Positions 1 to 56,357 of a DNA stretch of 64,000 nucleotides are shown in pieces. The first letter of the stretch is position 1, and each line of letters starts with the position of its first letter. The notes below the pieces were generated by a model. It was not told the origin of the DNA. It did no database searches and saw nothing but the letters and a program-made list of their open reading frames with translations. The stretch is from contig AWSN01000001.1 of NCBI GenBank assembly GCA_000505065.1, positions 132,247-196,246 on the forward strand. Direction: 5' to 3'. A program made the translations under genes and the position numbers. The stretch is from Parcubacteria bacterium RAAC4_OD1_1. Its GTDB lineage: Bacteria > Patescibacteriota > Minisyncoccia > Phycocordibacterales > UBA9973.

Positions 1-742
1 TAGCCACGGAATGATTCTTGCAGAAGAAGGGGAGAAAATGTCTAAATCTCGTGGTAATGTCATAAATCCAGATGAAATAATAAAATTATATGGAGCAGAC
101 ACACTTCGTCTTTATGAAATGTTTATTGGTCCTTTTGATCAAGCTGTCTCTTGGAGTACTGAGAGTATTATTGGGCCAAGAAGATTTTTGGAAAAAGTTT
201 GGAAAATAGGAGAAAAAATTGGCTCCTCGAGGTCGAACCTCGGGATCACTAGAGGTTCGACCTCTTCCCGCCAATCATATTCTGCTACATTTCAAACCTT
301 ACTTCATAAAACTATCAAAAAAGTAAGTGAAGATATTGAAAATATGAATTTTAATACAGCTGTTTCTTCTATGATGATACTTGTAAATGAAATGGAAAAA
401 CAAGATGTGGCAAAAAAAGATTTTGAAATGTTCTTACAAATATTATCTCCATTTTCTCCACATATAGCAGAAGAATTGTGGTATTTATTAGGGAATAAAA
501 AATCAATACATACTTCTTCTTGGCCTAAATGGGATAAATCTAAAATCAAAGAAGATAAAATAAAGATAGCGGTACAAGTAAATGGTAAGGTTAGGTCTGA
601 GGTAATCATAGATAAGGATTCTGATGAAAATTTGGTTAAAAATCTTGTCTTAAATCTTGTATCATTAAAACCTTGGATAGAAAATAAACAAATAAAAAAG
701 TTTATATATGTCCCAGGTAGGATTGTGAATATTGTGGTCTAG
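1..742 (+). CDS. leuS: Leucyl-tRNA synthetase, C-terminal part (5' end lies outside window; frame starts at nt 2)
   Basis: Class I KMSKS motif ([10 protein letters not shown]) and anticodon-binding/C-terminal region; TAG stop at 740-742. Confidence 0.85.
221..272. repeat. GC-rich in-frame hairpin insertion in leuS; arms gaggtcgaacctc (229-241) and gaggttcgacctc (252-264) are reverse complements
   Basis: ~65% GC block in a ~30% GC gene; encodes [19 protein letters not shown] just upstream of the conserved HKTIKKV motif; spawns spurious antisense ORF 86..274. Confidence 0.6.
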
Positions 743-7735: not shown

Positions 7736-7996
7736 GCCCTCGTAGTTCAATGGACCCCATCATAATGCTTCTGTAGTTCAATGGATAGAACAGTCCCGTC
7801 CTAAGGGATAGATGTCAGTTCGATTCTGGCCAGAAGCACAAATAAGCATTATGAGGGGCATGTGCCATAGTTCCGTCCTGAGGTGAGAAATGGGTAGGGA
7901 CCCATTTCGCAAGACCTTGAGCGTTTTGTAATCAAAATGCGAAAGGTATACCGCTTTTGTAAGAAGTAGATGCACGTTCGATTCGTACCGAGGGCA
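7736..7996 (+). ncRNA. Composite tRNA-like locus: outer 5' acceptor/D-arm (7736-7754) and T-arm/3' acceptor (7972-7996) enclosing a helix-clamped tRNA-Arg and about 113 nt of hairpin-rich RNA
   Basis: gccctcg (7736-7742) is the perfect complement of cgagggc (7989-7995); T-arm gcacg-ttcgatt-cgtac precedes the latter; see findings. Confidence 0.4.
7767..7838 (+). tRNA. tRNA-Arg (anticodon CCT), canonical 72 nt
   Basis: Acceptor gcttctg/cagaagc, D-arm gttc-aatggata-gaac, anticodon stem gtccc/gggat, loop gtCCTaa, T-arm gtcag-ttcgatt-ctggc, discriminator A. Confidence 0.8.
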
Positions 7997-9770: not shown

Positions 9771-11981
9771 TTAAACTGGCTCGCCTTGGCTCGTATCAGG
9801 TGAGACAGGCCATTTTTCTATCATTAATAATTTTTTATTTTCCTTAAGAAACATACCCCATAATTCTTCTGTGACGAAAGGCATAAATGGATGGAGGATT
9901 TTTAATATTTTTTCTAGTGTGTATAGAAGAAAATGTTTTCTAGATAATATTTCTTTTTCTGCACCATTCTCGAAAATATTTTTACTTTCTTCAAGTATTA
10001 TATCAGCAAAACGTGCCCATGTATATTGATATATTTTTTCTCCAACCAAATAGAACTTATATTCATCCATTTCTTTTGTGATTTCTATTATTAATTTATC
10101 AATTTCATCTATTAATTTTTTATCTACATCTACATAATTATTAAAATTTTCATTTTTTATATTTTCAGTATTTGAAAGTACAAAACGAGTTATATTCCAG
10201 AGTTTATTTGCATAGTTTTTATATGCTCTTATTTTATCTTCTGACATTTTGCTGTCATTTCCGGGTCCTGTCCCTATGATGAGTGACATACGGACAGCAT
10301 CTGCTCCATATTTTGCTGTAAGCTCTAGTGGGTCAAGTGAATTTCCTAGAGACTTACTCATTTTTCTTCCTTGCGCATCTCTTACTATTCCATGTAAATA
10401 AACATTTTTAAAAGGAACTTCTCCAAGTAGATATGTACTCATAAGTATCATTCGAGCAATCCAAAAGAAAAGAATATCATACCCAGTTTCAAGCATATTG
10501 GTAGGGTGGTAAGTTTTAAAGTCAGATGCATTTAAATCTGGCCAGCCTAGGGTCGAGAATGTCCAAAGTCCTGAAGAGAACCAAGTGTCTAGAGTGTCCG
10601 AGTCTTGTTCCCACCCATTACCATTTGGTGTTTCTACTCCACAATATATTTCTTCACCCTTATACCAGACAGGGATACGATGTCCGTACCATATCTGGCG
10701 GGAAATACACCAATCACGTAGATTTTCTATCCAATTATAATAAACTTTTTCAAAACGATTTGGAATGATATTTACCTCTTTACTCCTTACAGCTTCAAGC
10801 ATTAATTCTTTTAAGCTTTTATTATCTCTCTCTTTTATTGGTTTGTTTACATCTATAAACCATTGAAGTTTTGGTAATGGTTCTATTATTCCACCAGTTC
10901 TTTCTGCAGTAGAAATATTTTGTGTTACTTCCTCTTCTTTTTCTAAAAGATTATTTTCTCTCAAAAAATTTACGATTACCTCTCTTGCTTCAATTGTTTT
11001 TTTGTTAAGAATCCTTTCATCTCCTACTGTCATTTTCGCAAATTCATTTATAACTTGTTTTGTATCTAATTTATGTCTTGTTGCAATATCAGCATCTATT
11101 TGTGAGTGAGCGGGGGTGACTCCGAGTGCCCCTGTTCCAAATTCTTTTTCCACAGATTCATCTGCTACTATTTTAATATTTAAAGATACTCCACAAAAAT
11201 CTTTAATTTCATAAGTTTTACCAATATATTTTTTATATCTTTCATCATTAGGGTGTACAGCAACAGCTGTATCTCCAACTTTTGTTTCTGGTCTGGTTGT
11301 AGAAATATAGATAGGGAAGTCATTACTATATTTAAATGTATATAGTTTTGCTTTTCTTTCTTCGTAAACTATTTCATCATCAGAAATTACGGTTTGACCT
11401 TTTGGATCCCAGTTTACGATTCTGTGCCCTCTATAAATAAGTCCATCATCATACATTTTCTTAAATGCAGTTCGGACTGCTAAATTTCTTTTTTCATCCA
11501 AAGTAAAAGCTTCACGAGACCAATCAAGGGATGCTCCCATTTTTTTAGATTGATTTATGATTGTATCATGACTTTCTTGTGCAAATTGATTTACTCTTTT
11601 TAGAAATTCTTCACGACCCAAATCTCCTTTTCTTTTACCTTCTTCTTTCTCTAATATTTTTTCAACTTTTGATTGAGTAGCAATTGCTGCATGATCTGTA
11701 CCTGGAAGCCAAAGCGTCTTATATCCTTTCATACGAGCAAATCTTGTCATAATATCTTCTATTGTAAGAGTCGCAGCGTGACCCAAATGCAGTGTCCCTG
11801 TCACATTTGGAGGAGGGAGAACCATAGAAAAAGTTTCTGCATCTTTATCCGTCATTCCTTTTTCTATACAAACATCTGGATTAAAAAATCCTGATTCTTC
11901 CCACATTTTATAAATACGATCCTCTGTCTCTTTAGGGTCGTATGGCTTCAATAATTTAGGATCTATATTTGACTCATTCAT
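9771..11981 (-). CDS. valS: Valyl-tRNA synthetase (start taken at MNESNID; lacks long C-terminal coiled-coil)
   Basis: HIGH-type motif PPPNVTGTLHLGHA, KMSKSLGN, editing and anticodon-binding domains. Confidence 0.85.
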   Translation of the reverse strand: MNESNIDPKLLKPYDPKETEDRIYKMWEESGFFNPDVCIEKGMTDKDAETFSMVLPPPNVTGTLHLGHAATLTIEDIMTRFARMKGYKTLWLPGTDHAAIATQSKVEKILEKEEGKRKGDLGREEFLKRVNQFAQESHDTIINQSKKMGASLDWSREAFTLDEKRNLAVRTAFKKMYDDGLIYRGHRIVNWDPKGQTVISDDEIVYEERKAKLYTFKYSNDFPIYISTTRPETKVGDTAVAVHPNDERYKKYIGKTYEIKDFCGVSLNIKIVADESVEKEFGTGALGVTPAHSQIDADIATRHKLDTKQVINEFAKMTVGDERILNKKTIEAREVIVNFLRENNLLEKEEEVTQNISTAERTGGIIEPLPKLQWFIDVNKPIKERDNKSLKELMLEAVRSKEVNIIPNRFEKVYYNWIENLRDWCISRQIWYGHRIPVWYKGEEIYCGVETPNGNGWEQDSDTLDTWFSSGLWTFSTLGWPDLNASDFKTYHPTNMLETGYDILFFWIARMILMSTYLLGEVPFKNVYLHGIVRDAQGRKMSKSLGNSLDPLELTAKYGADAVRMSLIIGTGPGNDSKMSEDKIRAYKNYANKLWNITRFVLSNTENIKNENFNNYVDVDKKLIDEIDKLIIEITKEMDEYKFYLVGEKIYQYTWARFADIILEESKNIFENGAEKEILSRKHFLLYTLEKILKILHPFMPFVTEELWGMFLKENKKLLMIEKWPVSPDTSQGEPV

Positions 11982-12003: not shown

Positions 12004-13188
12004 CTATAAAGATAAATTCCCATTGGCTTTGATGGAGCCCAGTTTTGTTGTATATTTTTTATTTTTATATTGGTAGTATCCTGCGATGGCGATCATAAGA
12101 GCATTGTCTCCTGTGTGGCCACGGCCCGGGAAGTGGGCTTTGATCTTTAGGAAGTCCGACTTCCTAACTTTTTTAATTTCATTAGTTATAACTTTTTTAA
12201 GTTGAGGAGAAGCAGAGACTCCACCTCCCACTATTAGGGTTTTGATTTTATATTCCCTTATTGCTTTCATTGTTTTATAAGAAAGCACTTCAAATGCTGC
12301 ATCTTCAAATTCTTTGGCAATTTTTCTTTTTATATCATCTGTAAGTTCTCCGATATCTCGTATCATATAAAGCACAGCAGTTTTAAGTCCTGAAAAAGAA
12401 AAATCATAATCTTTTGAATACATCATCGGACGGGGGAGTTTTATTTCTAGTATTTCACTCGAAATGTTATTCCCGTCAGCACGCAATAAATTTCTGCTGA
12501 AATTTTTGCTCGTGCTCGGCCCGTCGGCCTGCGCAAGGCTTTCTGGAACAACATTCTCTCGTTCCATACTAGCTAATTTTCCAATCTCTGGTCCGCCCGG
12601 GTAAGGGAGCCCCATCATACGAGCGACTTTGTCGAAAGCTTCTCCAACGGCATCATCGCGAGTTTGCCCAATTTTTTTGTATTTCATCCAATTTTTTATA
12701 AAAACAAGTTCCGTGTGTCCACCAGAAACAAGAAGTGTAAGCATTGGGAACAGTTCTTTGGTGTTTTTAATTGTGAAATTTTTTCCTTTTTTAGGAAATA
12801 TAGAAAATATATGTCCCTCCATATGGTTTACGGGTACTATTGGTAATTTATATTTTGAGGATAATTCTTTTGCAAAGACTATTCCAGTCCAAAGTGCAGG
12901 CTCAAGCCCTGGTCCAGTAGTGACAGCGATTGCATTTATTTTTTTATTAATATCTTTTTCTCTAATTTTTGCTTTTCTTAAAACTTTTTCAAATACAAGT
13001 GGCAGATTTTTTATATGCTCTCTTTTAGCAAGAGCAGGATAGACACCACCATATTCTTTATGGATATCTATCTGTGAAGAAACTTCATTTCCAAGTATTT
13101 TAAATTTTGTAGTTTTACCCTGTTGTTTAATCTCCACTATTGCTATGGCAGTCTCATCACAAGATGTTTCTATGGCTAATATTTTCAT
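12004..13188 (-). CDS. tsaD: tRNA N6-adenosine threonylcarbamoyltransferase TsaD (Kae1/Gcp), with ~30 aa GC-rich insertion
   Basis: MKILAIETSCDETAIAIV start, HMEGH metal site, C-terminal GDNALMIAIAG; insertion PESLAQADGPSTSKNFSRNLLRADGNNISSEI encoded by GC-rich DNA 12463-12560. Confidence 0.85.
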   Translation of the reverse strand: MKILAIETSCDETAIAIVEIKQQGKTTKFKILGNEVSSQIDIHKEYGGVYPALAKREHIKNLPLVFEKVLRKAKIREKDINKKINAIAVTTGPGLEPALWTGIVFAKELSSKYKLPIVPVNHMEGHIFSIFPKKGKNFTIKNTKELFPMLTLLVSGGHTELVFIKNWMKYKKIGQTRDDAVGEAFDKVARMMGLPYPGGPEIGKLASMERENVVPESLAQADGPSTSKNFSRNLLRADGNNISSEILEIKLPRPMMYSKDYDFSFSGLKTAVLYMIRDIGELTDDIKRKIAKEFEDAAFEVLSYKTMKAIREYKIKTLIVGGGVSASPQLKKVITNEIKKVRKSDFLKIKAHFPGRGHTGDNALMIAIAGYYQYKNKKYTTKLGSIKANGNLSL

Positions 13189-13830: not shown

Positions 13831-15285
13831 ATGAAAATACTAAATGAAATTTTAAAAGATATCATAATTTTAGAGTCAAAGGGAAACGTTGATACCCCTG
13901 TTTCTTCTGTGTCTTTAGATTCGAGAGATATAGAGCCCCATTCTTTGTTTGTTGCACTTATTGGTAATGTTTTAGACGGGCATTCTTTTATAGATGAAGT
14001 TGTTGAAAAAGGGGCCAAAGTTATAGTTCATGAGAAGGATTTAAGTGAATATAAATCTGGCGTGACTTATATTAAAGTAAAAGATACTCATGAAGCAGTT
14101 GGTATTATTGCAAGTAATTTTTATGGCAATCCGTCCAAGCATTTAAAGCTTGTTGGTGTGACAGGGACAAATGGTAAAACGACAACTGCAACACTTCTTC
14201 ATCAATTATTTAGAAATCTTGGTTATAAAGCTGGGATGATCGGCACAATAGTAAATAAAGTAAATGATGAATCTTATGAAGCTAAACGTACGACCCCAGA
14301 TCCTATTTCTCTAAATAAAATTCTTGCTGAAATGGTGGATAAAGGTTGCGAATATGTATTTATGGAAGTATCTTCTCATTCTATTTCAGAAAAAAGAGTT
14401 TCGGGTCTTTCTTTTGTAGGTGGAATATTTACAAACCTTACCCTTGATCATTTGGATTATCACAAGACTATAGAAAGTTATGCTGAAGCGAAAAAAGGTT
14501 TCTTTGATATGATTCCTAGTTCTGGTTTTGCAATTGCAAATATAGATGATGATATGGGGGAATATATGCTTTCTACTACTAAAGCAAAAAAATATGTATT
14601 TGGGTTAAAAAATGCAGAGGTCAGACCTATGCAAATTTTGCAGAGGTCAGACCTCTGCGGATCAGACCTCTGCGGATATTTTAATGAAAGATTAGAAACA
14701 AAATTAATTGGTGAATTTAATGCTTACAATATTTTAGGAATTTATGCTGTAGCGGTTTTGCTTGGACAAGATAAAGAAAAAATAAAAGAAATTATTAAAG
14801 ACTTAGATGGAGCTCCTGGCAGATTTCAAGCGATAAAAAATAACGATGGAATTATTGGAATTGTAGATTATGCTCATACTCCAGATGCATTAGAGAATGT
14901 TTTAAAAACTGCTAATGGTATAAAAAAAGATGGCAGGCTTATTGCTTTGGTTGGTTGTGGTGGAGATAGAGATAGAAGTAAAAGGCCGATAATGGCTCGT
15001 ATCGGATATGATTTAGCAGATATACTTATCCTTACATCTGATAATCCTCGCACCGAGAAGCCAGAAGATATTCTTATGGAAATGCAGAAAGGTTTACCTC
15101 TTGAAGCATTAGACAAAGTGGAAATAATTGTAGATAGGCATATGGCAATAGAAAAAGCATGCTCCATAGCAAAATCTGGAGATATCATTTTGGTTGCAGG
15201 AAAAGGTCACGAGAATTATCAAGAGGTCAATGGAGTTAAACACCATTTTGATGATTTGGAAGAGTTAGAAAAATATTTAAAATAA
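13831..15285 (+). CDS. murE: UDP-MurNAc-L-Ala-D-Glu:meso-DAP ligase MurE
   Basis: VGVTGTNGKTTT P-loop, DNPRTE MurE signature, Mur ligase C-terminal domain. Confidence 0.85.
   Translation: MKILNEILKDIIILESKGNVDTPVSSVSLDSRDIEPHSLFVALIGNVLDGHSFIDEVVEKGAKVIVHEKDLSEYKSGVTYIKVKDTHEAVGIIASNFYGNPSKHLKLVGVTGTNGKTTTATLLHQLFRNLGYKAGMIGTIVNKVNDESYEAKRTTPDPISLNKILAEMVDKGCEYVFMEVSSHSISEKRVSGLSFVGGIFTNLTLDHLDYHKTIESYAEAKKGFFDMIPSSGFAIANIDDDMGEYMLSTTKAKKYVFGLKNAEVRPMQILQRSDLCGSDLCGYFNERLETKLIGEFNAYNILGIYAVAVLLGQDKEKIKEIIKDLDGAPGRFQAIKNNDGIIGIVDYAHTPDALENVLKTANGIKKDGRLIALVGCGGDRDRSKRPIMARIGYDLADILILTSDNPRTEKPEDILMEMQKGLPLEALDKVEIIVDRHMAIEKACSIAKSGDIILVAGKGHENYQEVNGVKHHFDDLEELEKYLK
14613..14675. repeat. In-frame tandem GC-rich palindromic units (cagaggtcagacctctgcgg x about 2.5) inside murE
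   Basis: Unit is self-complementary (cagaggt-c-agacctctg); encodes AEVRPMQILQRSDLCGSDLCG in a variable loop of MurE. Confidence 0.6.
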
Positions 15286-16680
15286 ATGCAAAATTATAAA
15301 CAATTTTTTAAAGGGAAGAAGATTACAGTCATGGGGCTTGGGATACTTGGGCGTGGGGTAGGGTATACTAAGTTCTTGGCAGAGTGTGGTGCGGATTTAA
15401 TAGTGACAGACCTAAAGACTAAAGAACAACTCGCTATTTCAATTAAAGCTTTAGAAAAATTCTCCAGTCCTAAGCAAGGCTTGGGACCGATAAAATTTAT
15501 ATTAGGGGAACATAGGTTAGAAGATTTCAAGGGTAGGGATATGATTATAAAAGCTGCTGGGGTACCGTTTGATTCTATTTACATAAAAGAAGCTAAGAAA
15601 AATAATATTCCTATCGAGATGGATGTCTCACTGTTTGCTAAACTTGCGAGAGATGTAAAGATAGTAGGTGTGACAGGGACTCGTGGAAAAAGTATGACAA
15701 CAACTTTGATATATGAAATTCTATCAAAGAATATTAAAGATCAAAAAGTTTATATTGGTGGCAATCTTCGAGGAGTTGCCACATTGCCATTACTCAAAAA
15801 AGTAAAAGATGGAGATATTTTAATTTGTGAGCTAGATTCTTGGCAACTTCAAGGGTTTGGAGATAGTAAAATATCTCCAAACATTTCCGTCTTTACTTCT
15901 TTTATGCCTGATCATATGAATTATTATAAAAATAGTATGGAAAAGTATTTTGATGATAAGGCAAATATTTTTAAATATCAAAAAAAAGATGATGTTCTAA
16001 TAATTCGTCCAGGGATGAAAAGTTTTATAAAGAAATCTAATGTTAAAGGAAAATTAATTGTAATTAATCCAAACGATGTTATAGCTTGGAAATTTAATGT
16101 ATTAGGAGCTCACCATAGAGAGAATTTAGCATGTGCGGTAGAAGTAGCGAAGCAATTTGATATACCAATTTCTAAAATCAAAAAAACTGTAGCAGATTTT
16201 AAAGACTTAGAAGGTAGAATGCAATTACTTAGAGTTTATAAGGGGATAAAGATTTATAATGACAACAATGCCACAACCCCCGAAGCAACGATTGCAGGGC
16301 TTGAAGCCTTAAGTGATCAGCCAAAGGCCTTGCCTATGGCTAGCCATAGGCAAGGCCTTTGGCAAAAAAACATTATTCTTATTTGTGGTGGTGCTGATAA
16401 AAATTTACCACTTGAGAATCTTGTAAAAGTTGTAAATAAGAATTGTAAATTTATTTCTTTGATTCCTGGAGGCGGAACTGATAGGTTGTTGTCTAATAAA
16501 AATTTAAAAGTAAAAAGTTATAAAGGAACTGATTTTAAAGATATAATAATTACAGCAATTAATAATGCAAAAAGGGGAGATATCGTGATTCTTTCTCCAT
16601 CATTTGCTTCGTTTGGGATGTTTAATAATGAGTATGAAAGAAATGATTTATTTATGAAAATAGTCAAAAATTTAAAATGA
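15286..16680 (+). CDS. murD: UDP-MurNAc-L-Ala:D-Glu ligase MurD
   Basis: N-terminal GLGxxGRG Rossmann motif, VGVTGTRGKSMTTT P-loop, Mur ligase C-terminal domain. Confidence 0.85.
   Translation: MQNYKQFFKGKKITVMGLGILGRGVGYTKFLAECGADLIVTDLKTKEQLAISIKALEKFSSPKQGLGPIKFILGEHRLEDFKGRDMIIKAAGVPFDSIYIKEAKKNNIPIEMDVSLFAKLARDVKIVGVTGTRGKSMTTTLIYEILSKNIKDQKVYIGGNLRGVATLPLLKKVKDGDILICELDSWQLQGFGDSKISPNISVFTSFMPDHMNYYKNSMEKYFDDKANIFKYQKKDDVLIIRPGMKSFIKKSNVKGKLIVINPNDVIAWKFNVLGAHHRENLACAVEVAKQFDIPISKIKKTVADFKDLEGRMQLLRVYKGIKIYNDNNATTPEATIAGLEALSDQPKALPMASHRQGLWQKNIILICGGADKNLPLENLVKVVNKNCKFISLIPGGGTDRLLSNKNLKVKSYKGTDFKDIIITAINNAKRGDIVILSPSFASFGMFNNEYERNDLFMKIVKNLK
16320..16363. repeat. Perfect 44 nt palindrome (gccaaaggccttgcctatggc|tagccataggcaaggcctttggc) inserted in-frame in murD
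   Basis: Self-complementary over its full length; encodes QPKALPMASHRQGLW, absent from the conserved MurD core alignment. Confidence 0.65.
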
Positions 16681-41794: not shown

Positions 41795-41823
41795 AAAAAC
41801 CTAGCACAGCTAGGTTTTTTTAA
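41795..41823. terminator. Bidirectional terminator (aaacctagc-aca-gctaggttt + T-run)
   Basis: 9 bp stem, A-run and T-run on either side. Confidence 0.6.
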
Positions 41824-47298: not shown

Positions 47299-48096
47299 TT
47301 ATCCTATTGTTATTTTATTTTTTCTATTTTTCTCTGCGACTAAAGAAATTTTTTCCATCATATAAATAGCTTCTTTGGGGTGTTTACCTATGGCAGATTC
47401 TTCTGAAAGCATAACTCCATCCGCACCATCTAGTATTGCATAGGCAACATCTGAAACTTCAGCTCTAGTAGGAATAGGGTTCTCTACCATAGAAAGCATC
47501 ATTTGAGTAGCGACTATTACCATTTTGCCAACCTCATTGCATTTTTCTATTATATTGTGCTGGATAAAAGGAATTTCTTCTAATGGAAATTCATTACCCA
47601 AATCACCTCTCGCCACCATAATAGCATCTGCTTCTTTGATAATTTCTTCTAAATTATCATAAGCTACTTTTCTTTCTATTTTAGCTATAACCTTTTGATT
47701 ACCACCTCTTTCTTTAATTAATTCTTTTATTTTTTTTACATCTTTAGCATTCCCTACATAAGACATAGCAATGTATTCTATATTTTCTTCTACTCCAAAA
47801 GTTAAGTCAGAAATATCTTTTTCGGTTATTGCACTTTGTTCTTCTTCTCCTCCAAATTTATGACCCTCACCTTCTTTAACCCTGGGCCCTGATAAATCTT
47901 GAATCATAGGAATGTTTTTTCCACATTCACTAGCTGATTCTCTCACATTTTTTATTACCTCTCTGTGCCAATCGTGAGTATTCCAAGAAAAGTTTAAACG
48001 AGCGATATCCATATGATGATTAATCATTTCTTTAATCATTTCTTTATTATTACTTACTGGCCCTATTGTAGCTATTATTTTTGTTGTAGATTCCAT
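47299..48096 (-). CDS. pyk: Pyruvate kinase-like, minimal form (A-domain barrel only; B and C domains absent)
   Basis: [10 protein letters not shown]...ARLNFSW, VIAKIE...[54 protein letters not shown] all align with PK A-domain; only 265 aa. Confidence 0.65.
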
Positions 48097-49632: not shown

Positions 49633-50379
49633 CTATTTATTCAAATAATAAAGTCTTTTTGTTTCGGGGAGTCTTTCGATAGCATAACGAAGCATAGTGC
49701 GGGGCATTTTGTTTGAATTTTGATCTAAGTATGAAAGTAACTCCTTCTCATCCACCCTTTTACCCACCTCTCGGAGCATCCACCCACAAGCTTTATGAAT
49801 AAGATCATGTTTATCTTTCATAAGCATATCTGTGATTTTGAAAGTCCAATCTGCTTCTTTTTTATAAATAAAAGCGAAAGTAGAAATAATTGCAATACGT
49901 CTTTCCCATAAATTCTTCGATTTAGCTAACCTAGCAAGGACGGTCCTTGCTAGGTTTTTATTTTTATATAAATAGTCACCCAATATATAATGAGCAGATA
50001 AATCTACTAAATCCCAGTTATTTATATATTTGGTATTTTTCAAATAAAATTTTACAATTTTACTTTTTTCCCCTAGGTCCGACCTAGGGGAACTCGCTCC
50101 TAAGCCTTGCTTAGGAGCGGTTAATTTTTGATATTTTTGAACTAAAATCAAAAGGGCAACAAGACGGGCTTCATGATATTTATTATTTAATAATTCTTGT
50201 ATTTCTTTGAAGTCTATATGAGTATATTTCTTTGCGATACTTCTAGATACTGGAACGGTAATACCGAGGAATACATCTCCTTCCCCATATTCTCCTTTTC
50301 CAGTTTTGAAAAATCTAGTTAAGATTTTAGATTTATCTTTATTTTTTAATTTTAATAATTCATTGATAACCTTTGACAT
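49633..50379 (-). CDS. AlkD/AlkC-like HEAT-repeat DNA alkylation repair protein
   Basis: DNA_alkylation motifs (KTGKGEYGEGDVFLGITVP; NWDLVDLSA; HKACGWMLREVGKR); contains GC-rich in-frame palindromic segment. Confidence 0.6.
   Translation of the reverse strand: MSKVINELLKLKNKDKSKILTRFFKTGKGEYGEGDVFLGITVPVSRSIAKKYTHIDFKEIQELLNNKYHEARLVALLILVQKYQKLTAPKQGLGASSPRSDLGEKSKIVKFYLKNTKYINNWDLVDLSAHYILGDYLYKNKNLARTVLARLAKSKNLWERRIAIISTFAFIYKKEADWTFKITDMLMKDKHDLIHKACGWMLREVGKRVDEKELLSYLDQNSNKMPRTMLRYAIERLPETKRLYYLNK
50070..50119. repeat. Two adjacent GC-rich palindromes (cccctaggtc-c-gacctagggg; cgctcctaagc-ctt-gcttaggagcg) in-frame in the alkD-like gene; insertion status unresolved
   Basis: Self-complementary; encode ...KQGLGASSPRSDLGEK... 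Confidence 0.6.
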
Positions 50380-50584: not shown

Positions 50585-52315
50585 TTATATGAACAATCTC
50601 GCTATTCTTATATCTTCAAAACTCAGACTGTGTCCTTCTTTTTCTAATATTAATTTTATTGGATTTAATTTCCCCACTTCTTCCCCTTTCAATTTTTTAT
50701 TTACTTTTTTTACTAAGTCTATATTTTTCTGCGAAGGTTTAATATGAGAAATAATTGTTTCCGGATATTCTTTCATTATTTCTTCTATGTGGTGAGTGAT
50801 AGTACCTTGGGTAAGATTTCTTTCTTTTGCTATTTGTTTTATATTTTTTCCACTTTCCAATAATTCTTTGGTTACTAAAATGGTTGGGATTTTGGTGTCT
50901 ATAATTTTTCTTTTGCTTTTTCGGTGAGTTTTTGATGATGTGTCTAAAGTCCCACCCATTCTTTTTATAAAATCACTTTCCATTTTTTGTTGATCAGATT
51001 TATTTAGTTTACTAAAAACAATTTCATTTTCAGCACTTTCATTTTTTAATTCTTGATCAAATTTTAAAACTTCCGGATCTACTTTTAAAGCATTTTTATT
51101 TAAGCCTATCAATTTTATACCAGAAAGGGTCCGAACTCGAGAAAGAGCAACATACCCCATCCCATAAGCAAAGGTGCTTCTAAGGTCGATTTCTGCGTTA
51201 TCTAGGGACATTCCTTGGCTTTTGTGTATTGTTATGGCCCAGGCGAGGCGAAGTGGAAGCTGTGTTATGGAGGCTTTTATTTTGCCGTCTTCTTCTATAG
51301 CCCAAAGCATTGGGGTTATGGTCACAGTCTTACCGTTATATAGTTTTATTATTGGGTTATGGGTTTCAGGATCAAAATCTACCACTTTGCCTCGAGAGCC
51401 ATTTACATAACCACTTTCCATATTATTTTTAATACACATAATCTCGGCACCAATTTTTAGGCGAAGTTCTTCGTGGGCTAAACAACTTTTTTTCAAAATA
51501 TCAACAATGATATCATTTCCTTTAGAAGTCATATAATATATTTTTTCTTCAGCATCTATTTTTGAAAGTTCGGTGTGATTTTCATTGTCTACATTTACAT
51601 TGTGAGTATATAATTTTGTTGCTTTTTCATTATTATTTAATTTTGCGTCAATTCGTTTTTCTAAATATTTATAATGTTTATCTTCTGTATTATTGTCACG
51701 AATTGTATTTAATATTTCTGTTAAAATATTGTCTTCTTGTCTATGTTGCTCTGTTAAATAGCAAATTGCAGGATTTAATATTTTCCAAGCATCGCTTATA
51801 TAGACCATTTTTGTCCCACCAGTCGGACTGGTGGGATTACCCACTAGTCCGACTGGTGACTCTTCATATATTCGTTTTTCTACTGGTGGAAGCTGAAAGA
51901 AATCTCCAGAGAGTATTACTTGTAATCCACCAAAAGGTTTCTCTACTCTTTTAAATTTTCGGCAAACTTTTTCTATCATATCAAGTTGGTATCCATGAAG
52001 CATCGATATCTCATCTATTATTAGGACTCTGGCTTTCTCGAATCTGTTCCAGAGATATTTTTTCTCTTCGAGTTGATCAAGATCCCTTTCATCCATTTTG
52101 TTTTTAACACCTATCCCAGACCAGCCGTGTATAGTCATACCGTTCATATGAGTAGCGGCAATACCAGTCGAGGCCGTCACTGCGACAGCGATGTCGTGAT
52201 CTTGTAAATATGAAATGTATTGATTGAGTAAATATGTCTTACCAGAGCCTGCACTACCTGTCAGATAAATATTCACCCCAGTTTTCATAATTTTCAAAGC
52301 TTGTTCTTGGGTCAT
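50585..52315 (-). CDS. RecD/Pif1-like SF1 DNA helicase with C-terminal HTH
   Basis: Walker A GSAGSGKTY, Walker B LIIDEISM, SF1 motifs; C-terminal helix-turn-helix region. Confidence 0.7.
   Translation of the reverse strand: MTQEQALKIMKTGVNIYLTGSAGSGKTYLLNQYISYLQDHDIAVAVTASTGIAATHMNGMTIHGWSGIGVKNKMDERDLDQLEEKKYLWNRFEKARVLIIDEISMLHGYQLDMIEKVCRKFKRVEKPFGGLQVILSGDFFQLPPVEKRIYEESPVGLVGNPTSPTGGTKMVYISDAWKILNPAICYLTEQHRQEDNILTEILNTIRDNNTEDKHYKYLEKRIDAKLNNNEKATKLYTHNVNVDNENHTELSKIDAEEKIYYMTSKGNDIIVDILKKSCLAHEELRLKIGAEIMCIKNNMESGYVNGSRGKVVDFDPETHNPIIKLYNGKTVTITPMLWAIEEDGKIKASITQLPLRLAWAITIHKSQGMSLDNAEIDLRSTFAYGMGYVALSRVRTLSGIKLIGLNKNALKVDPEVLKFDQELKNESAENEIVFSKLNKSDQQKMESDFIKRMGGTLDTSSKTHRKSKRKIIDTKIPTILVTKELLESGKNIKQIAKERNLTQGTITHHIEEIMKEYPETIISHIKPSQKNIDLVKKVNKKLKGEEVGKLNPIKLILEKEGHSLSFEDIRIARLFI
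51815..51857. repeat. GC-rich palindrome pair (cccaccagtc-g-gactggtggg; cccactagtc-c-gactggtg) inserted in-frame in helicase
   Basis: Self-complementary; encode PVGLVGNPTSPTGG. Confidence 0.6.

Positions 52316-54956: not shown

Positions 54957-56357
<1,401 letters not shown>

Follow-up and report, generated by a model that had tools for sequence, protein, structure and literature searches.

Patescibacteria, also termed the candidate phyla radiation (CPR), have small, gene-dense genomes that are poor in recognisable mobile DNA. Short GC-rich palindromic modules occur in several AT-rich genomes, including the GC clusters of yeast mitochondrial DNA, the byp elements and the double-hairpin elements of Allomyces; among bacteria, Ogata and co-workers reportedly described, in 2000, Rickettsia palindromic elements (RPEs) within protein-coding genes. 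RPEs are palindromic repeats that are read through in frame in housekeeping genes (PMC10969869). In REPINs, which are doublets built from REP (repetitive extragenic palindromic) units, the doublet is the conserved unit and conserved single-stranded motifs flank the hairpin, as described in excerpts of two studies (PMC3116915, PMC3733652). REP and REPIN sequences are overwhelmingly extragenic, with 14 of about 1,067 16-mers overlapping genes in P. fluorescens SBW25 (PMC3116915). Here we analyze a GC-rich hairpin inside leuS, the leucyl-tRNA synthetase (LeuRS) gene, in a 64,000-nt stretch of Parcubacteria bacterium RAAC4_OD1_1 (assembly GCA_000505065.1, contig AWSN01000001.1, positions 132,247 to 196,246 of the forward strand); this whole stretch is referred to as the window. 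Nucleotides 223-270 are probably one copy of a small, dispersed, GC-rich palindromic repeat element of Nomurabacteria/Paceibacteria genomes.

By analogy, the leuS element would work most like the RPEs. In both, palindromic hairpin repeats lie in frame in unrelated housekeeping genes of a small AT-rich genome, the extra peptide segments are compatible with the protein fold, and presence or absence is lineage-specific. However, RPEs are about 100-150 bp long, form ten sequence families that each encode a conserved peptide, and are restricted to Rickettsia, whereas the leuS element is 48 nt long, occurs in Patescibacteria, has a stem core that varies freely but in a compensated manner, and lies in various frames or in spacers. 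Its 48-nt size and Nomurabacteria host set it apart from the RPE families, and no relationship in sequence is expected. In architecture the closest analogy appears to be with REPINs, because two inverted palindromic units of the leuS element likewise form one hairpin. In contrast to leuS-type copies, which are mostly intragenic and low in number, REPs and REPINs reach tens to hundreds of copies per genome, bear a GTAG or CGTC tag at one palindrome end and are accompanied by a REP-associated tyrosine transposase (RAYT) gene; no RAYT gene was seen in the window, and the ends of 218-276 carry neither GTAG nor CGTC, the conserved flanks being CTCYTY and TTCCCG. The genomic setting is comparable, again by analogy, to that of mitochondrial GC clusters, which are sometimes found inside protein-coding genes and are polymorphic between close relatives. 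GC clusters and byp elements, unlike the leuS element, belong to eukaryotic organelles and have no sequence relationship with it; ribosomes skip byps, for which an in-frame position is not required. Among the open-access papers searched, none described palindromic elements lying in frame in genes of CPR/Patescibacteria; a report elsewhere is possible. The element is a form of intragenic palindromic repeat DNA, itself a known kind.

Structure of the leuS hairpin

The GC content of block 221-272 is 63.5%, compared with 29.8% for the remainder of the leuS fragment. An inner stem is formed by 229-241 (GAGGTCGAACCTC) and 252-264 (GAGGTTCGACCTC), a perfect 13-bp inverted repeat around a 10-nt loop, and frame 2 runs through the block as 19 residues with no stop, the open reading frame (ORF) continuing to 742. 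The GC-rich block, the hairpin and its in-frame position had all been proposed in a sequence-only reading of this DNA and are borne out here; the 52-nt extent given there is replaced by the 48-nt unit of a four-way alignment. The GAGG and CCTC feet of the stem are near-invariant, being invariant in three of four copies, and each arm is itself self-complementary (GAGGTcgaACCTC, GAGGTtcgACCTC), the two centres being inverted across the 10-nt spacer. Coordinates of all parts are collected in Table 1.

Folding energies of the 69-nt region are -33.1 kcal/mol for RNA (z = -7.5) and -18.8 kcal/mol for DNA (z = -6.6), and none of 200 shuffles folded as stably. The 13-mer and its near matches occur four times in the window against 0.26 expected, and the window contains 15 perfect hairpins of at least 40% GC whose stems reach 10 bp or more, compared with 0.4 in shuffles. 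Two of the six frames of the 48-nt core contain stops, and frame choice therefore matters.

An artefact can be dismissed: two sequencing runs yielded three assemblies in which the element is identical, its 69-nt region being found in the ENA assembly of SRR944699 and in the Logan assemblies of SRR6486333 and SRR944699, with no mismatches to the window over 6.7-13.2 kb of overlap. Homologous copies from unrelated studies also rule out an assembly or amplification artefact.

Other identities were considered and rejected. Only tRNAs pass the Rfam gathering scores in the window, and the best Rfam match to the element at E up to 1, RmaA (E = 0.69), reaches 18.5 bits where the gathering score is 57. 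The element contains a T-loop-like GGTTCGA, but its stem-loop geometry does not fit a tRNA-derived fragment, and ARAGORN and Rfam find five ordinary tRNAs elsewhere. It is not an intrinsic terminator, as the stem is followed by TTCCCGCCAATCA with no U-run and lies inside an ORF.

Dispersed copies and covariation

Copies of the element occupy the same leuS site in two other genomes (loci L001 and L039). The L001 copy has flanks identical to those of the window (TTGGCTCCTCGAGG...CCTCTTCCCGCCAA), but its stem core differs (GAGGCCTTGCCTC with GAGGCAAGGCCTC): four stem positions are changed, all four changes are compensated, two as double transversions, and they are clustered in a 5-nt block. The orthologous L039 copy is partly decayed, with three U.G pairs on the sense strand and one G.A mismatch. 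With the three leuS copies as input, a covariance model matched a non-orthologous, full-length copy at L127 676-744 on the minus strand (56.2 bits, E = 2.7e-15). This copy lies in the atpD-atpC spacer of another Paceibacterota genome, antisense to its operon, an orientation that argues for a DNA-level element rather than a sense-RNA motif. Its N5 boxes (CTTGA/TCAAG) are different yet complementary, and its outer stem likewise differs but pairs (AAAATTTTTC/GAAAAATTTT).

Alignment of the four copies gives a 48-nt unit with the consensus CTCYTYGAGG-N5-CCTCGGG-N7-GAGG-N5'-CCTCTTCCCG, in which 30 of the 61 aligned columns are invariant. CCTCTTCCCG and the loop-proximal GGG are nearly invariant, and the freely variable N5 box always has its mirror image in the opposite arm. 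Pairing is seen in 97.4% of cells, and both partners change in 9 of the 19 pairs; this level was reached by none of 500 shuffles, and a slid partner gave 31-53% pairing. As judged from these alignments, the 48-nt element is present at both orthologous and non-orthologous sites of different genomes.

Within the window, one sequence is recognisably of the same type. The 16320-16363 palindrome shares the 13+10+13 layout, and in its arms (AGGCCTTGCCT, at 16327 and 16350) it is identical to the L001 leuS copy. The sequence-only reading had placed the leuS hairpin in a family recurring in this window. That idea holds in part: other GC-rich palindromes share its architecture and short cores, but only this one is a recognisable relative, and the strongest proof of a dispersed family is the intergenic L127 copy, from another genome. 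A search of viral contigs gave no match to the element frame.

A second GC-rich hairpin-like stretch (CCCCCTCGCCCTACGGGCACTCCCCCTTAGCAGGGGGAG) adjoins the L127 copy, at L127 745-800; GC-rich palindromes cluster in this atpD-atpC spacer.

Presence and absence at the leuS site

The closest relative found, GCA_964618365 (leuS locus L122), shares about 80-83% nucleotide identity over 30 kb of syntenic DNA. Its LeuRS aligns closely except for indels, and its leuS site is a hairpin-free, AT-rich linker of 23 aa; KISQKINKNPKIKTDENVES is encoded there by 33 AT-rich nt, where the window has 69 nt. A cleaner pair is provided by L001 (GWE2_36_115) and L038 (GCA_003487725), which are 97-98% identical over the upstream 120 nt and 93% identical over the next 60 nt downstream. 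Between these flanks, L001 has a 54-nt element segment and L038 has 24 unrelated AT-rich nt. The gain or loss is therefore a discrete event, and the element was gained or lost as a block. It replaces approximately 24-33 nt of AT-rich native linker without a direct target duplication, and its flanks are mutually complementary, lengthening the hairpin. The lineage-specific insertion that the sequence-only reading had proposed is thus supported by ortholog comparison, and the hairpin is lineage-specific.

Identity between L001 and L038 falls to 72-83% some 200 nt downstream of the element site, and the protein P0003 resembles a chimera of P0001 and P0028; both suggest that lineages have recombined, with a breakpoint close to the element.

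Unrelated long hairpins occupy the same leuS linker in other Patescibacteria, namely at L002 (10178-10336), L004, L006 and L007; in L006, a GC-rich inner hairpin is enclosed by a perfect stem of 22 bp that is largely AT-rich. The leuS linker site is a hotspot for palindrome formation.

Other observations concern the leuS neighbourhood. The assemblies L001 (1-769) and L038 (1-663) both end inside leuS, no more than approximately 100 nt apart and just upstream of the KMSKS region, and a repeat or variable insertion region upstream of KMSKS seems to break assemblies. In the source genome about 2.3 kb separates leuS from an upstream AbiEi/AbiEii toxin-antitoxin pair (L123 3349-4703), which is not at that position in the close relative. 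A palindrome with a 12-bp stem, CAGGCCAAA(T/A)TTTT...AAAAAATTTGGCCTG, is kept in three genomes (L123 6079-6109, L122 5498-5528 and L005 7423-7453), and in L123 and L122 it is inside a Sua5/YciO-like gene upstream of leuS. It is conserved, unlike the other, polymorphic palindromes.

The encoded segment of LeuRS

The leuS fragment matches the Pfam families tRNA-synt_1 and Anticodon_1, and its best solved relatives are the LeuRS structures 3ziu, 4aq7 and 1h3n (E = 1e-41). The full LeuRS of the source genome has 963 aa and starts upstream of the window (L123 7044-9935; nucleotide 1 of the window is L123 9194). Between the RRFxxxxW and (H)KTIKK motifs the window encodes a linker of 35 residues, compared with 18-23 residues in hairpin-free LeuRS. 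The matches listed in a metagenome scan with the LeuRS alignment are at most 50% identical and served only to give the baseline linker length. The 48 nt of the element, or 16 codons, correspond to the linker excess over a 19-aa baseline. The linker of E. coli LeuRS, about 31 aa, is similar in length and unrelated in sequence. The sequence-only reading had accordingly been right in calling the position variable among LeuRS enzymes, and the comparison with E. coli did not reveal a similar segment in an unrelated bacterium. The block had also been placed immediately before the conserved HKTIKK block, but eight codons (YSATFQTL) intervene.

The encoded insertion comprises residues 74-92 and is hydrophilic and predicted to be disordered. 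In an AlphaFold2 model (mean predicted local distance difference test, pLDDT, of 80), residues 76-94 form a coil between helices 53-75 and 95-113, and pLDDT is below 50 at residues 78-92. In keeping with the surface exposure suggested earlier, the model indicates that the encoded segment most likely becomes a floppy surface loop of LeuRS.

The source LeuRS also contains an insertion of approximately 150 aa with a Nudix box (GGVEEGETFEEAVFKEIKEEASI; Pfam NUDIX match) after the editing domain. The LeuRS of the closest relative has 811 aa and is without this insertion.

Other GC-rich palindromes and insertions

The remaining GC-rich palindromes of the window (Table 1) share architecture and short cores with the leuS element. 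The ORFs stay open, in frame and stop-free through every intragenic element (leuS, tsaD, murE, murD-like, alkD and pif1), and the net length differences of the intragenic elements examined are +36, +36, +12, +9 and +24 nt. Some palindromes cause no net length change, native codons being overwritten, and several are nested: that at 49928 is the 41798 hairpin with another palindrome in its loop. GC-rich cores of 11-15 nt are common to unrelated genes and genomes. The core RGTCNGACY has seven occurrences against one expected, TCCTAAGCAAGGCTT is found in two genes, and AAGGACSGTCCTT is found in the window and twice in L004. Three pairs of window elements share a 9-mer or longer, against 0.7 expected and a shuffle maximum of three. 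With k-mer sharing this modest, the in-window family is heterogeneous and the covariance-model result is the firmer evidence.

In comparison with the close relative, the window genome alone carries the Pif1 element, the TsaD palindrome, a 5' arm at AlkD site 2, and two hairpins in intergenic DNA, at 41798 and 54467. Similar palindromes turn over rapidly in this lineage, as these comparisons show. AlkD orthologs of many Nomurabacteria/Paceibacteria are a mosaic of palindrome-encoded peptides at two loops (SPRSDLGEK, ARQGLAEK, RTVLKRASPRTVL), and baseline AlkD orthologs have none of these peptides. One AlkD hairpin is identical except for a loop base in three genomes whose AlkD is 67-71% identical to that of the window, and the neighbouring hairpin in those genomes shows compensated differences. 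In L120 the AlkD hairpin has an extra A-T pair placed symmetrically in both arms. A protein-level motif (RSDL/KSDF/PKQGLG) was ruled out, because identical DNA cores lie in more than one reading frame and also occur in spacers.

The murE cluster holds a 15-nt tandem duplication at 14647-14676 (TCAGACCTCTGCGGA twice, encoding SDLCG SDLCG). Non-palindromic GC-rich insertions relative to the close relative were found at 56206-56229 (24 nt, ATP synthase beta gene), 1582-1596 (15 nt, TPR protein gene) and 9778-9802 (25 nt, 3' end of a class-I aminoacyl-tRNA synthetase gene), and the close relative has a 30-nt GC-rich insertion of its own at L122 19982; the GC-rich indels of this lineage are therefore not all hairpins. 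A 158-nt stretch beside tRNA-Arg (7835-7992) has 46% GC and a hairpin, GAAATGGGTAGGGACCCATTTC, at 7887-7908; it is absent from L001 and has no Rfam match at E up to 0.1. It is possibly an unannotated small RNA or another inserted element. The pyruvate kinase gene at 47299-48096 encodes only 265 aa and matches part of the PK (pyruvate kinase) barrel domain. It is equally short in the close relative (L120 13562-14359), indicating that the short form is conserved and not a single-genome pseudogene.

Table 1. Positions of the leuS element, its parts and other palindromes in the window
Feature	Position	Strand	Basis or remarks
leuS 3' part, C-terminal 246 aa of leucyl-tRNA synthetase	2-742	+	Frame-2 translation, Pfam, solved structures, full gene in L123
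Outer stem, 5' half, ATTGGC	218-223	+	Pairs with 271-276; RNA and DNA folds
Core 48-nt palindromic element, CTCCTCGAGGTCGAACCTCGGGATCACTAGAGGTTCGACCTCTTCCCG	223-270	+	Boundaries from four-way alignment: window, L001, L039, non-orthologous L127
Internal loop 5x5, 5' strand, TCCTC	224-228	+	TCCTC or TCTTT across copies
54-nt patch matching filled/unfilled allele difference	227-280	+	L001 vs L038; window vs L122
Inner stem, 5' arm, GAGG-TCGAA-CCTC	229-241	+	Central N5 box variable
Hairpin loop, 10 nt, GGGATCACTA	242-251	+	
Inner stem, 3' arm, GAGG-TTCGA-CCTC	252-264	+	Exact reverse complement of 229-241
Internal loop, 3' strand TTCCC and adjoining G (TTCCCG)	265-270	+	Within CCTCTTCCCG; invariant in 4/4 copies
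Outer stem, 3' half, GCCAAT	271-276	+	6-bp outer stem encloses 5x5 internal loop
Palindrome TTAGGAAGTCCGACTTCCTAA in tsaD	12147-12167		Absent from closest relative
GAGGTCAGACCTC-type palindrome cluster in murE	14614-14676		Arms distantly related; no net length change vs solved MurE
Palindrome GTCCTAAGCAAGGCTTGGGAC in MurD-like gene	15467-15487		15-mer common to 50095-50119
Perfect 44-nt palindrome in MurD-like ligase gene (15286-16680)	16320-16363		Closest in-window relative; 24.7 bits, E about 4e-4
Palindrome in murC	22750		
Intergenic palindrome AACCTAGCtgtGCTAGGTT	41798-41816		Outer arms as in 49928-49956; absent from closest relative
Nested palindrome AACCTAGC[AAGGACgGTCCTT]GCTAGGTT in AlkD-like gene	49928-49956		Vs closest relative: 12 nt inserted, 14 nt overwritten
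Two adjoining hairpins in AlkD-like gene, encoding TAPKQGLGASSPRSDLGEK	50068-50119		
Double palindrome in Pif1-like helicase gene	51814-51858		39-nt segment absent from closest relative

Origin and maintenance of the element

We favour a dispersed element because local templating alone fails to account for a conserved sequence of 60% GC at unrelated sites in different genomes. Such an element would be selfish or neutral, would function as a DNA-level hairpin and would spread by copying or recombination rather than by cut-and-paste. Template switching within a strand, or conversion of one arm by the other, could keep the arms complementary; alternatively, propagation may require the element to fold. 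The leuS copy presumably persists as an in-frame, stop-free insertion in a variable linker between two domains, where it would join the last helix of the catalytic/stem-contact region to the first helix of the anticodon-binding domain. Read-through would yield a disordered, tolerated loop of 16-19 residues rich in G, S, R and T, and no host function is implied for the element.

Several observations weigh against this interpretation. Pfam detects no transposase, RAYT or other HUH enzyme among the 62 ORFs of the window, and the functions it assigns to them are housekeeping only (dcw cluster, ATP synthase, glycolysis and aminoacyl-tRNA synthetase genes). The site shows no target-site duplication, and native sequence has been substituted instead of just being split by an insertion; with this signature of transposition missing, recombination or templated repair fits better than classical transposition. 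Copy number is low: the 64 kb contain a single full copy and a single related one, and approximately 1 Mb of related loci adds one non-orthologous copy. A burst-like mobile element is therefore not demonstrated. Same-site patchiness could reflect homologous recombination between lineages instead of mobility, given the recombinant-like P0003 and an L001/L038 identity that drops, over the length of the gene, from 97% to 72%. Local palindrome formation also operates and has produced some of the hairpins where they stand: in L002, the leuS hairpin carries a 5' arm copied as the reverse complement of adjoining native downstream sequence, which is present in L038. Finally, we infer the translation of the element from its sequence.

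The L002 hairpin raises the question of a purely local origin, in which replication template switching (quasi-palindrome or fold-back synthesis) makes and keeps the hairpin, there is no mobile family, and the resemblances are convergent. Mutation by template switching at quasi-palindromes has been established in E. coli and yeast, according to excerpts of two studies (PMC7202029, PMC3820800). As outlined in those excerpts, it would explain symmetric changes in the arms, complementarity extending into the flanks, overwriting and nested palindromes. The flanks here are indeed inverted complements rather than direct repeats (ATTGGC/GCCAAT, and the outer stem of L127), AlkD site 2 shows overwriting of native codons, and the L120 AlkD hairpin has its extra pair symmetrically. 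The inverted-complement flanks and the symmetric L120 pair, together with the native origin of the L002 arm, point to templated events, as do the block-wise and partly transversional N5 changes, which are not what stepwise RNA-style compensation would give. Template switching is, however, a mutational process and not an element. It gives no account of a conserved 48-nt sequence that recurs at a non-orthologous intergenic site (E = 3e-15) or of the GC-rich cores common to unrelated genes and genomes, and a 60% GC sequence in a 30% GC gene cannot have been copied from adjoining native DNA. We therefore consider a purely local origin unlikely. Selection for an RNA or DNA structure, such as a ribosome pause at a domain boundary, a signal for mRNA processing or stability, or a protein-binding cruciform, kept by compensatory evolution, is in our judgement improbable as well. 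Strong covariation with near-invariant single-stranded parts, the site between two structural domains, and the unrelated hairpins of L002, L004, L006 and L007 at the same leuS position would agree with it, as would the non-Watson-Crick pairs of L039, three of which are U.G on the sense strand beside one G.A. A tally of imperfect stems gave four G.U pairs and one A.C pair, too few to separate RNA-level from DNA-level constraint. Against such selection, the structure is dispensable, the closest relative and many LeuRS genes being hairpin-free here; the copy in L127 stands between genes and runs antisense; double transversions, which have no wobble intermediate, account for two of the four compensated pairs, and the changes are clustered within 5 nt in a way that looks templated; and there is neither an Rfam match nor a T-run after the stem.

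Two further explanations concern what becomes of the element at the protein level. It might not be translated at all, through ribosome bypass (as in T4 gene 60 or mitochondrial byp) or removal from the mRNA, leaving a LeuRS without the 16-19 residues. A GC-rich hairpin in an AT-rich genome recalls the byp elements of Magnusiomyces mitochondria, and TCC codons stand on both sides of the stem (224-226 and 266-268). Nevertheless, a skipped element would not need to be in frame and stop-free, as all the intragenic elements examined are, and no stop follows the candidate take-off codon, so that bypass is very improbable. Alternatively, the segment could be an ordinary variable loop whose palindromy is incidental or results from selection for a flexible linker rich in G, S and R. 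Linker length varies in all LeuRS, with that of E. coli nearly as long, and the peptide has the hydrophilic, disordered character expected of a loop, but a perfect 13-bp stem with z = -7.5, compensated changes across copies, the same element in non-coding DNA and family members read in different frames in different genes all speak against it. The L127 copy and the four-copy covariation effectively refute the ordinary-loop explanation, and we give it scarcely any credence.

The dispersed palindromic repeat that we prefer also falls outside the classes of known elements, belonging to none of RPE, REP/REPIN, MITE (miniature inverted-repeat transposable element) and byp. A MITE would have several near-identical copies at non-orthologous sites, with filled and empty sites; in the limited sequence examined, the leuS site is found both filled and unfilled and one non-orthologous copy is seen in another genome. 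The inverted-complement flanks and the replacement of native sequence without a direct duplication are not those of a MITE. A broader proposal, which we put forward tentatively and consider possible at best, is that Patescibacteria might harbour previously undescribed, ultra-small (~48 nt) hairpin replicators. These would be recognised through the GAGG/CCTC feet and CCTCTTCCCG, have a self-templated variable stem core, colonise hairpin-prone sites in essential genes and spacers, and pass from lineage to lineage by recombination or with a HUH-like structure-specific enzyme. They would then be a continuing source of new surface loops and a bacterial counterpart of mitochondrial GC clusters.

Implications

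The near-invariant feet and co-varying core of the element amount to a natural experiment on hairpin recognition and maintained folding. Filled and unfilled alleles are available within 97%-identical flanks, and with the clear co-variation they offer a good entry point for studies of propagation. The findings are relevant to REPIN/RAYT-like systems and to template-switch mutagenesis in organisms with reduced repair, and such hairpins may explain contig breaks and mis-assemblies in CPR metagenome bins. If small palindromic elements indeed turn over within essential genes of CPR, there would be a bearing on annotation, phylogenomic alignments and structure prediction, and a second independent bacterial system, besides the RPEs of Rickettsia, in which selfish DNA creates protein segments. 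Many short, lineage-specific insertions in CPR proteins would then be parasitic or mutational DNA and not adaptations.

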